This document shows, one piece after another, positions 40,619 through 41,489 of a DNA stretch of 64,000 nt. The translations under genes were made by a program, and so were the position numbers. A model generated the notes under the pieces. The model worked only from the letters and a program-made list of their open reading frames with translations, searched no databases and had not been told where the DNA came from. The DNA comes from Escherichia coli. Its GTDB lineage: Bacteria; Pseudomonadota; Gammaproteobacteria; Enterobacterales; Enterobacteriaceae. The first letter of the stretch is position 1, and each line of letters opens with the position of its first letter. Location of the stretch: assembly GCF_048403405.1 (NCBI RefSeq), contig NZ_CP183129.1; one strand, 5' to 3'.

Positions 40619-40657
40619 CAGTGCACTGGTAGCTGTTAAGCCAGGGGCGGTAGCGTG
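40619..40657 (+). promoter_or_regulatory. JUMPstart element with ops upstream of O-antigen genes
   Basis: cagtgcactggtagctgttaagccaggggcggtagcgtg; ops at 40646..40657. Confidence 0.8.
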
Positions 40658-40667
40658 GATTGATGGA

Positions 40668-41489
40668 ATGAAAAATAAGTGCCCACGAATTGCAGTAATA
40701 ATGTCGGTTTATATTAATGATAAATTTAATGAGTTTAAAGAGGCTTTTGACAGTATTATTAATCAAACATACTCTAACTTTGTTTTCTTTATTTATGCCG
40801 ATGGCAAGATAAATCCAGATATTGAAAGTTTTTTGCAAAATTATAATTCGCAACATGTGATTTTCATTAGAAGTGAAAAAAATAAGGGATTAGCTTATGC
40901 TTTGAATAAATTAATATCAGTGGCGCTAGTTAATAATGAATTTGATTTTATTGCCAGAATGGATGCTGATGATATAAGTTTAGAAGATAGATTTCAACGA
41001 CAAATAGATTTTTTTATGGCTAACCCTGAGTTAGATGTTGTTGGTGGGTTGTGTCAAGAGTTTGGTGGTGAGTCAGCAAGAGAAAAATGCAAGATCTATT
41101 TTACAGATGAAGCCATTAAAAACAATGCCTTTAAAAAATGTCCTTTCGTTCATCCAACCGTGATGTTTAAATCGTCTGTATTTAATAACGGGATGCGATA
41201 CCCTGAAAATCAGCCACTGACAGAAGATATGTGCTTATGGCTCGAGTTAATATCCGCGAATAAAAAGTTTGCAAATATTGACTCCGTTCTTCTAAAGTAC
41301 AGAATTAATGAGCAGACGCTAAAAAGAAGAAGAGGTTTGAATAAGGCTGTAACCGAATTATCCACAAGATTGTATTACGCCAAGAAACTTAAAATGCTTA
41401 GCGTACGGAATTTGTTATATATATTAATCCATTTTGGTGTCAGAGTCCTTTCTTCAAATATATTTAAACTTGTACATAAGTTAAATTAA
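40668..41489 (+). CDS. O-antigen glycosyltransferase, GT2 family
   Basis: ORF 40575..41489 begins across the JUMPstart, so start placed at MKNKCPRIAVIMSVY (40668); RMDADD DxD motif; AT-rich. Confidence 0.65.
   Translation: MKNKCPRIAVIMSVYINDKFNEFKEAFDSIINQTYSNFVFFIYADGKINPDIESFLQNYNSQHVIFIRSEKNKGLAYALNKLISVALVNNEFDFIARMDADDISLEDRFQRQIDFFMANPELDVVGGLCQEFGGESAREKCKIYFTDEAIKNNAFKKCPFVHPTVMFKSSVFNNGMRYPENQPLTEDMCLWLELISANKKFANIDSVLLKYRINEQTLKRRRGLNKAVTELSTRLYYAKKLKMLSVRNLLYILIHFGVRVLSSNIFKLVHKLN

Follow-up and report, generated by a model that had tools for sequence, protein, structure and literature searches.

A JUMPstart/ops element ten nucleotides before the probable start of the first O-antigen gene in an Escherichia coli O19-type cluster

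The JUMPstart/ops element, found ahead of every O-antigen operon of E. coli, reportedly goes back to work by Hobbs and Reeves in 1994, and its presence before the colanic acid operon as well as the O-antigen operon is already known as the textbook arrangement in this species. The effects of RfaH are classically those exerted on distal genes. Within the element, ops acts as an RNA polymerase pause site and as the loading site for RfaH, and is read as non-template DNA in the paused bubble (PMC5995543). All eight RfaH-bound ops sites of strain CFT073 lie in leaders, and none of its 22 ops-like sites on the non-template strand inside genes binds RfaH (PMC9765446). From the start of ops to the first gene, the distances in CFT073 are 40, 60, 61, 71 (the O6 antigen operon), 157, 190, 313 and 634 nt (PMC9765446), against 22 nt at the locus described here.

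Like the O-antigen leaders of E. coli O6 (CFT073), O7 and O16, the leader described here carries the 39-nt element between galF and the first O-antigen gene, with the ops 12-mer likewise placed in the leader on the non-template strand. The spacing differs, as in other sampled serogroups the first gene begins 29–224 nt after the element and in the present O19-type cluster 10 nt after it. The closest well-studied case hitherto, measured from the ops start, is kpsM (group 2 capsule region 3), which begins 40 nt from the start of ops and 28 nt after its end; this 28-nt gap is found in CFT073, in locus L021 and in kpsM-like loci, compared with 10 nt here. At kpsM, RfaH is bound to ops in vivo in CFT073 (PMC9765446). 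The kpsM system differs further in the 3' end of its ops (GCATA), in the gene served, which encodes an ABC-transporter permease, and in its promoter, about 800 nt upstream. The wza ops of CFT073 was loaded with RfaH only when H-NS and StpA were removed (PMC9765446).

We analysed a 64,000-nt stretch of E. coli chromosomal DNA, referred to as the window. The colanic acid cluster starts in it with wza, from 15535, and the O-antigen cluster is preceded by gne (38227–39222) and galF (39465–40358) and followed, according to the ORF list, by gnd, ugd, wzz and then the his operon. Positions 38001–53000 are 99.947% identical over 15,001 nt to E. coli SMS-3-5, which is listed as serogroup O19 in PMC3158064. 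The cluster is assigned to the O19 type on this comparison, that is, via a typed strain and not via the sequence of the O19 reference strain. The same first genes, at about 99.9% identity, are present in 77 complete E. coli genomes. The first O-antigen gene (40668..41489 including the stop codon, + strand) encodes a glycosyltransferase of family 2 (GT2) of 273 aa, MKNKCPRIAVIMSVYIND..., and the remainder of the operon (41491..47445, + strand), delimited from the ORF list, the SMS-3-5 annotation and the identity to SMS-3-5, encodes a 588-aa protein, a GT-A glycosyltransferase, wzy (frameshifted here), a GT4 glycosyltransferase and a wzx-like ORF. The operon spans about 7 kb at 31–35% GC.

Some features of these downstream genes were recorded alongside. 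The protein of about 590 aa encoded at 41491–43257 has no Pfam domain, with only a sub-threshold match to DUF6642. In wzy (44133–45311), one T is missing relative to SMS-3-5 at about 44834/44835, and the ORF stops at 44849, giving 238 aa as compared with 392 aa; this indel is either a real frameshift, in which case a semi-rough phenotype is predicted, or a homopolymer sequencing error. The wzx-like ORF (46267–47445) is uninterrupted in the window at 392 aa, and the identical DNA of SMS-3-5 has been split by PGAP into a pseudogene ('flippase, missing C-terminus') and a hypothetical protein. The window and SMS-3-5 differ at eight places, six of which (48165–48299) fall in an IS1 copy that follows the wzx-like ORF at about 47900–48700.

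Three further loci proved useful for comparison: L002 (an E. coli variant), L005 (from a metagenomic enterobacterium) and L007 (Salmonella enterica subsp. salamae 52:z:z39). In each of them galF is followed by a JUMPstart, 10 nt, the ATG of a GT2 gene, a gene for a protein of about 590 aa and a GT-A gene, and the leader upstream differs from that of the window. The succession of GT2, ~590-aa protein and GT-A forms a conserved three-gene module in E. coli, Salmonella, Pectobacterium and others (L005, L007, L008, L144 and L145).

JUMPstart elements were identified with the Rfam RF01707 covariance model at its gathering score of 35 bits over the full 38-position model. The first, at 15318..15356 (+), lies in the colanic acid (wza) leader and scores 57.3 bits (E=1.6e-10); the second, at 40619..40657 (+), lies in the leader of the O-antigen operon and scores 62.4 bits (E=5.5e-12, model positions 1–38). 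Both intervals are exactly those of a preliminary description of this DNA, which had placed the second JUMPstart/ops before the first O-antigen gene, as is borne out here. The same description had treated the two copies as the same 39-bp JUMPstart, and in this it went too far, with 34 of 39 positions matching and only the 3' 20 nt, including ops, identical. Other matches in the window above the gathering score of their families are an algC RNA motif (29742–29791, +) just before a cpsG-like ORF, a His operon leader (60165–60288, −) and the sRNA STnc240 (62586–62660, +).

The ops sequence GGCGGTAGCGTG occurs at 15345–15356 (+) as an exact match in the wza leader and at 40646–40657 (+), where it satisfies the 12-nt consensus GGCGGTAGnnTG exactly on the non-template strand, the downstream genes also being on the + strand. 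These are the only two occurrences in the window, with a chance expectation of 0.24 even with one mismatch allowed. The pause position, U11 of ops, corresponds to 40656. The stretch 40619–40657 is a known element in its usual place, between galF and the first O-antigen gene. Both copies are Rfam matches, and they differ in distance from the gene: 178 nt separate the first JUMPstart from the ATG of wza at 15535, as against 10 nt for the second.

Upstream of the second element, a block at 40520..40566 (+; TTCCTTGTTTC...TTGGTAAGACAATTAGCGTTTGA) belongs to the conserved leader that runs from galF to the O-antigen genes and is common to unrelated serogroups; its columns are near-invariant in an alignment with the leaders of CFT073 O6, O25b and O111. 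This block is likely to be the promoter region, judging from its conservation. A scan of 40300–40800 for consensus sigma-70 promoters and terminators gave two weak promoter-like matches, which did not exceed those in shuffled sequences, and none within the conserved block; no site at 40500–40620 was convincing.

Taken together, the locus is very probably a standard JUMPstart/ops leader element followed after 10 nt by a GT2 gene that starts at ATG 40668, with a longer ORF of 304 aa, which crosses the element, as a by-product. On this reading, transcription would begin in the conserved block at about 40520–40566, the putative promoter, and RNA polymerase, having transcribed the leader, would pause at U11 of ops (40656), where RfaH would bind the exposed non-template strand. 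The RfaH-modified polymerase would then be processive along the long, AT-rich operon and resist pausing, Rho and H-NS. Once it had cleared the start region, a ribosome would initiate at AUG 40668 on a site that includes ops RNA, possibly supported by a contact between RfaH and ribosomal protein S10. We infer the RfaH dependence of the O19-type operon by analogy with CFT073 O6, and the manner of initiation should be read as similarly conditional.

One could also suppose that ops is real but no more than a passive relic left by recombination at the JUMPstart boundary, with little effect of its own, the first gene being expressed in the ordinary way and RfaH, if it acts at all, serving the distal genes. 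Homology between serogroups does stop at the JUMPstart, their conserved 5' boundary, and an RfaH role confined to distal genes would accord with its classical effects. We nevertheless consider a relic improbable: the O-antigen copy outscores the wza copy in Rfam; every specified ops base is kept across loci whose proteins have diverged by 12–33%, with variation at the two N positions only (CG, CT, CA and CG among the window, L002, L005 and L007); and the O-antigen ops of CFT073 is a bona fide RfaH loading site (PMC9765446).

The position of the start codon was examined by comparison of homologues. The longest form of the GT2 ORF begins at ATG 40575, comprises 304 aa and crosses the JUMPstart, as the preliminary description had noted from the ORF list. 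Between 40657, the last base of the JUMPstart, and 40668, the A of the later ATG, there are 10 nt, GATTGATGGA; the two coordinates agree with the earlier account, and the distance of 11 bp given there becomes an intervening 10 nt. A search with the 304-aa ORF found 3036 homologues, and among those listed all but two E. coli variants are 254–295 aa long and cover 78–94% of the query. The exceptions, 99% and 88% identical, are both 304 aa long. In an N-terminal alignment of 23 homologue sequences, a comparison that the preliminary description had suggested, Met32 of the long ORF, encoded by ATG 40668, is exactly where the three closest non-identical orthologues (67–71% identity, 273 aa) start, with MKDK, MKQS and MKCQ; one of the three comes from S. 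enterica subsp. salamae 52:z:z39. Homologues of 267–295 aa outside the two variants have their first residue at or close to this Met, the more distant ones within 8 residues of it. An N-terminus conserved across the JUMPstart, which would have spoken for a longer protein, is seen only in the two E. coli variants, and these share the same leader DNA.

The sequences upstream of the orthologous genes are consistent with this placement. In L005 the start is directly preceded by an in-frame stop (...AAT TGA ATG), and L005 and L007 both lack an in-frame upstream ATG, with the result that gene callers arrive at the correct 273-aa protein for both. In L007 a TTG lies upstream in the reading frame, and an N-terminal extension from it is possible.

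Domain boundaries point in the same direction. The Pfam GT2 profile (PF00535) matches with 63.5 bits (cutoff 23.3), residues 41–195 of the long ORF corresponding to profile positions 2–155, so that the domain begins at residue 10 of the 273-aa form. GT-A chains in the PDB, including 6p61, 5hea and SpsA (1h7l), align with their own residues 1–10 to residues 34–39 of the long ORF, or 3–8 of the short form. By these matches the first gene belongs to glycosyltransferase family 2, with a predicted GT-A fold from the N-terminus onwards. Relatives with 48% identity are 270–275 aa long and are encoded within capsule or O-antigen clusters, away from any JUMPstart. Because homologue N-termini, the in-frame stop of L005 and domain boundaries agree, the start of the GT2 gene is placed on comparative evidence at ATG 40668. 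We infer that ops (40646–40657) lies in the untranslated leader and not inside a translated gene.

The 5' extension of the 304-aa ORF (40575..40667, +; 31 codons) is most likely untranslated leader that has been annotated by artefact, to judge from its sequence. The 304-aa model is the RefSeq/PGAP annotation in SMS-3-5 (WP_001183563.1), whose cluster has 647 members, every full-length member listed being 304 aa; the exact 273-aa form was absent from a collection of 15 billion sequences. Read in the long-ORF frame, the JUMPstart gives ..SALVAVKPGAVA followed by C or W, and it is free of stops in 35 of 35 copies readable in frame, drawn from E. coli serogroups and other Enterobacterales. Among these 35, an upstream ATG in the variable part of the leader is found only in the window and L002. 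The other 18 codons would be stop-free by chance in about 40% of cases ((61/64)^18). The leader is matched in at least 1432 E. coli genomes, and the gene is also matched in only 79 of these. Homology with the leaders of other serogroups stops at 40654–40665, and nothing is annotated over the leader there. The GC content is 48% in 40575–40667 as compared with 32% in the gene, with the drop at 40668. The best explanation for the 304-aa ORF is that it is a by-product of a stop-free JUMPstart and an ATG that happens to occur in this leader variant. Selection for the long ORF was considered in view of its retention in L002 and rejected, given that the JUMPstart is always stop-free and that the 18 codons stay open so often by chance.

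Transcript mapping in another serogroup bears on the same question. In CFT073 the O-antigen transcription unit has an RNA-seq-inferred (Rockhopper) start 67 nt before ops (PMC9765446). By leader alignment this maps to about 40577 in the window, on the upstream ATG itself, a position that is approximate and comes from a different serogroup. Marolda and Valvano are said to have found in 1998 an O7 leader of about 173 nt, about 20 nt longer than the CFT073 estimate; a leader of that length would place ATG 40575 inside the transcript.

A real 304-aa protein, translated from ATG 40575 with JUMPstart/ops as coding sequence (..SALVAVKPGAVAW...), is very improbable. The long ORF is open and was picked by PGAP and other gene callers, and it is also intact in L002 (88% identity), although the gene bodies have diverged by 12% in protein; between the window and L002, however, the extension shows two non-synonymous and two synonymous changes. 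A GAGGGAG immediately precedes ATG 40575, but this leaves a Shine-Dalgarno spacing of 0 nt, and the inferred transcript start falls on that very ATG. The extension is missing from every listed homologue beyond the two E. coli variants, its DNA is unannotated leader in other serogroups, the orthologous loci L005 and L007 are without the upstream ATG (L005 with the TGA directly before its start), the openness of the 18 codons upstream of the JUMPstart is unexceptional, and ops sites inside translated genes of CFT073 show no RfaH loading (PMC9765446).

A start further downstream, raised by the preliminary description, is rejected: the sole candidate, ATG 40701, which encodes Met12 of the short form and is the first ATG, GTG or TTG in frame after 40668, stands 43 nt after ops and would leave room for a conventional ribosome-binding site, but Met12 is invariant and internal to the motif (I/V)A(V/I)(I/L)MS(V/I)Y, the residues ahead of it (K/R-I/V-A-V/I-I/L), which this start would remove, are conserved in 23 of 23 aligned homologues with an invariant Ala at −3, the Pfam profile and the PDB homologues both align from residues upstream of it, and this ATG has no anti-Shine-Dalgarno pairing (about −1.9 kcal/mol, an approximate value for the 22 nt ending two bases upstream).

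With the gene starting at ATG 40668, the alternative that ops is unusually close to the start is the one that stands, the 10 nt between ops and the GT2 start (22 nt from the start of ops) being the shortest gap surveyed. In a sample of about 12 other E. coli types with annotated starts, the gaps range overall from 28 to 365 nt: kpsM-like 28, O87 wzx 29, neuD-like 60, rfbB 74 or 80, glycosyltransferases 99, 108 and 224, and wzi about 365 nt. A survey of other species, with one genome per species, yielded at least 120 loci, of which about half were chance matches outside Enterobacterales and were filtered out; in the 63 JUMPstart-like loci used, the gap, measured to the first ATG that opens 120 codons or more, has a minimum of 28 nt and a median of 178 nt. 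The 10 nt found here stand at the extreme end of a wide continuum and do not form a separate type of arrangement.

Two observations from the survey may be added. In Citrobacter sp. Awk 4 (L135, NZ_JANEWG010000027.1), which has too little downstream sequence for the survey filter, an O-antigen-type JUMPstart is followed by 19 nt and the ATG of a 131-aa ORF (MKRIITF...), the next-closest case; the frame across this JUMPstart is also open (138 codons downstream) and may be over-extended likewise. Five loci (L036, L044, L069, L077 and L101, from Acerihabitans, Pantoea and Enterobacter) form a distinct leader family with ops ...GGGCATCGGT..ACGGCCAGGGGCGGTAGCGTG, in which an ORF (MEHQS..., about 885 aa) with an AGGAGA Shine-Dalgarno of its own begins 20–32 nt after ops.

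A gap of exactly 10 nt recurs in the window, in L002 (88% protein identity), in L005 (71%) and in L007 from Salmonella salamae. It is not a one-off accident, since these orthologous loci are diverged and come from E. coli, from Salmonella and from a metagenome.

Since the start lies only 10 nt after the element, the ribosome-binding region would overlap ops. The two functions would not interfere with each other, ops acting at the level of DNA and the ribosome-binding site at that of RNA. It had been suggested that the arrangement leaves almost no room for a ribosome-binding site; the closeness is confirmed, but the conclusion is overstated, as a conserved GGA at 40657..40659 (+), a minimal Shine-Dalgarno-like sequence that begins with the final G of ops, stands 8 nt before the ATG. 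The pattern UGGA-N8-AUG is kept in five of five orthologous loci (the window, L002, L005, L007 and L008) although the linker itself diverges, and L008 keeps it even without a recognisable JUMPstart. A two-codon mini-ORF at 40663–40671, ATG GAA TGA (ATGGAATGA), which overlaps the real start codon, occurs only in the window and L002; it was rejected as a regulatory uORF, being missing in L005 and L007, and is probably incidental.

The calculated anti-Shine-Dalgarno duplex for 40668 is of moderate strength at −6.6 kcal/mol, with 23% of random 22-mers pairing at −6 or better; that for 40575 has −7.3 kcal/mol, but with zero spacing. Random 22-mers have a mean of −4.2 kcal/mol (sd 2.65), and neither start stands out from them. 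Shine-Dalgarno strength is unable to decide between the starts. Around the start the sequence is rich in A and folds less than shuffled controls do; for 40600–40710, the predicted minimum free energy of −20.9 kcal/mol is weaker than that of shuffles (z=+1.2), with no structured leader or occluded start in this interval.

In a passage of PMC5995543, RfaH-controlled leaders are held to lack canonical Shine-Dalgarno elements, and the same source cites Burmann (2012) for the recruitment of the 30S subunit through S10 by the refolded C-terminal domain of RfaH. The O19 arrangement of ops and AUG is compatible with this idea. That the conserved 10-nt gap is itself functional, initiation at this Shine-Dalgarno-poor start depending on RfaH that is loaded 12 nt upstream and recruits 30S through S10, is a speculative proposal that we think unlikely to be right. 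If it were true, the first O-antigen gene would depend on RfaH in translation as well as in transcription, and the locus would offer a natural minimal test case for the debated model of ribosome recruitment by RfaH.

The first O19 gene model in RefSeq/PGAP very probably carries a spurious 31-residue N-terminus derived from a regulatory element, and a correction of the start codon matters for expressing the enzyme or aligning the family. The comparisons suggest that ops can lie as near as 10 nt to a functional start and that this closeness has been kept across Escherichia and Salmonella. Ten nucleotides would then be a lower bound on the post-ops leader that RfaH-dependent operons need, and the O19 junction provides a compact natural construct for asking whether RfaH aids weak ribosome-binding sites.
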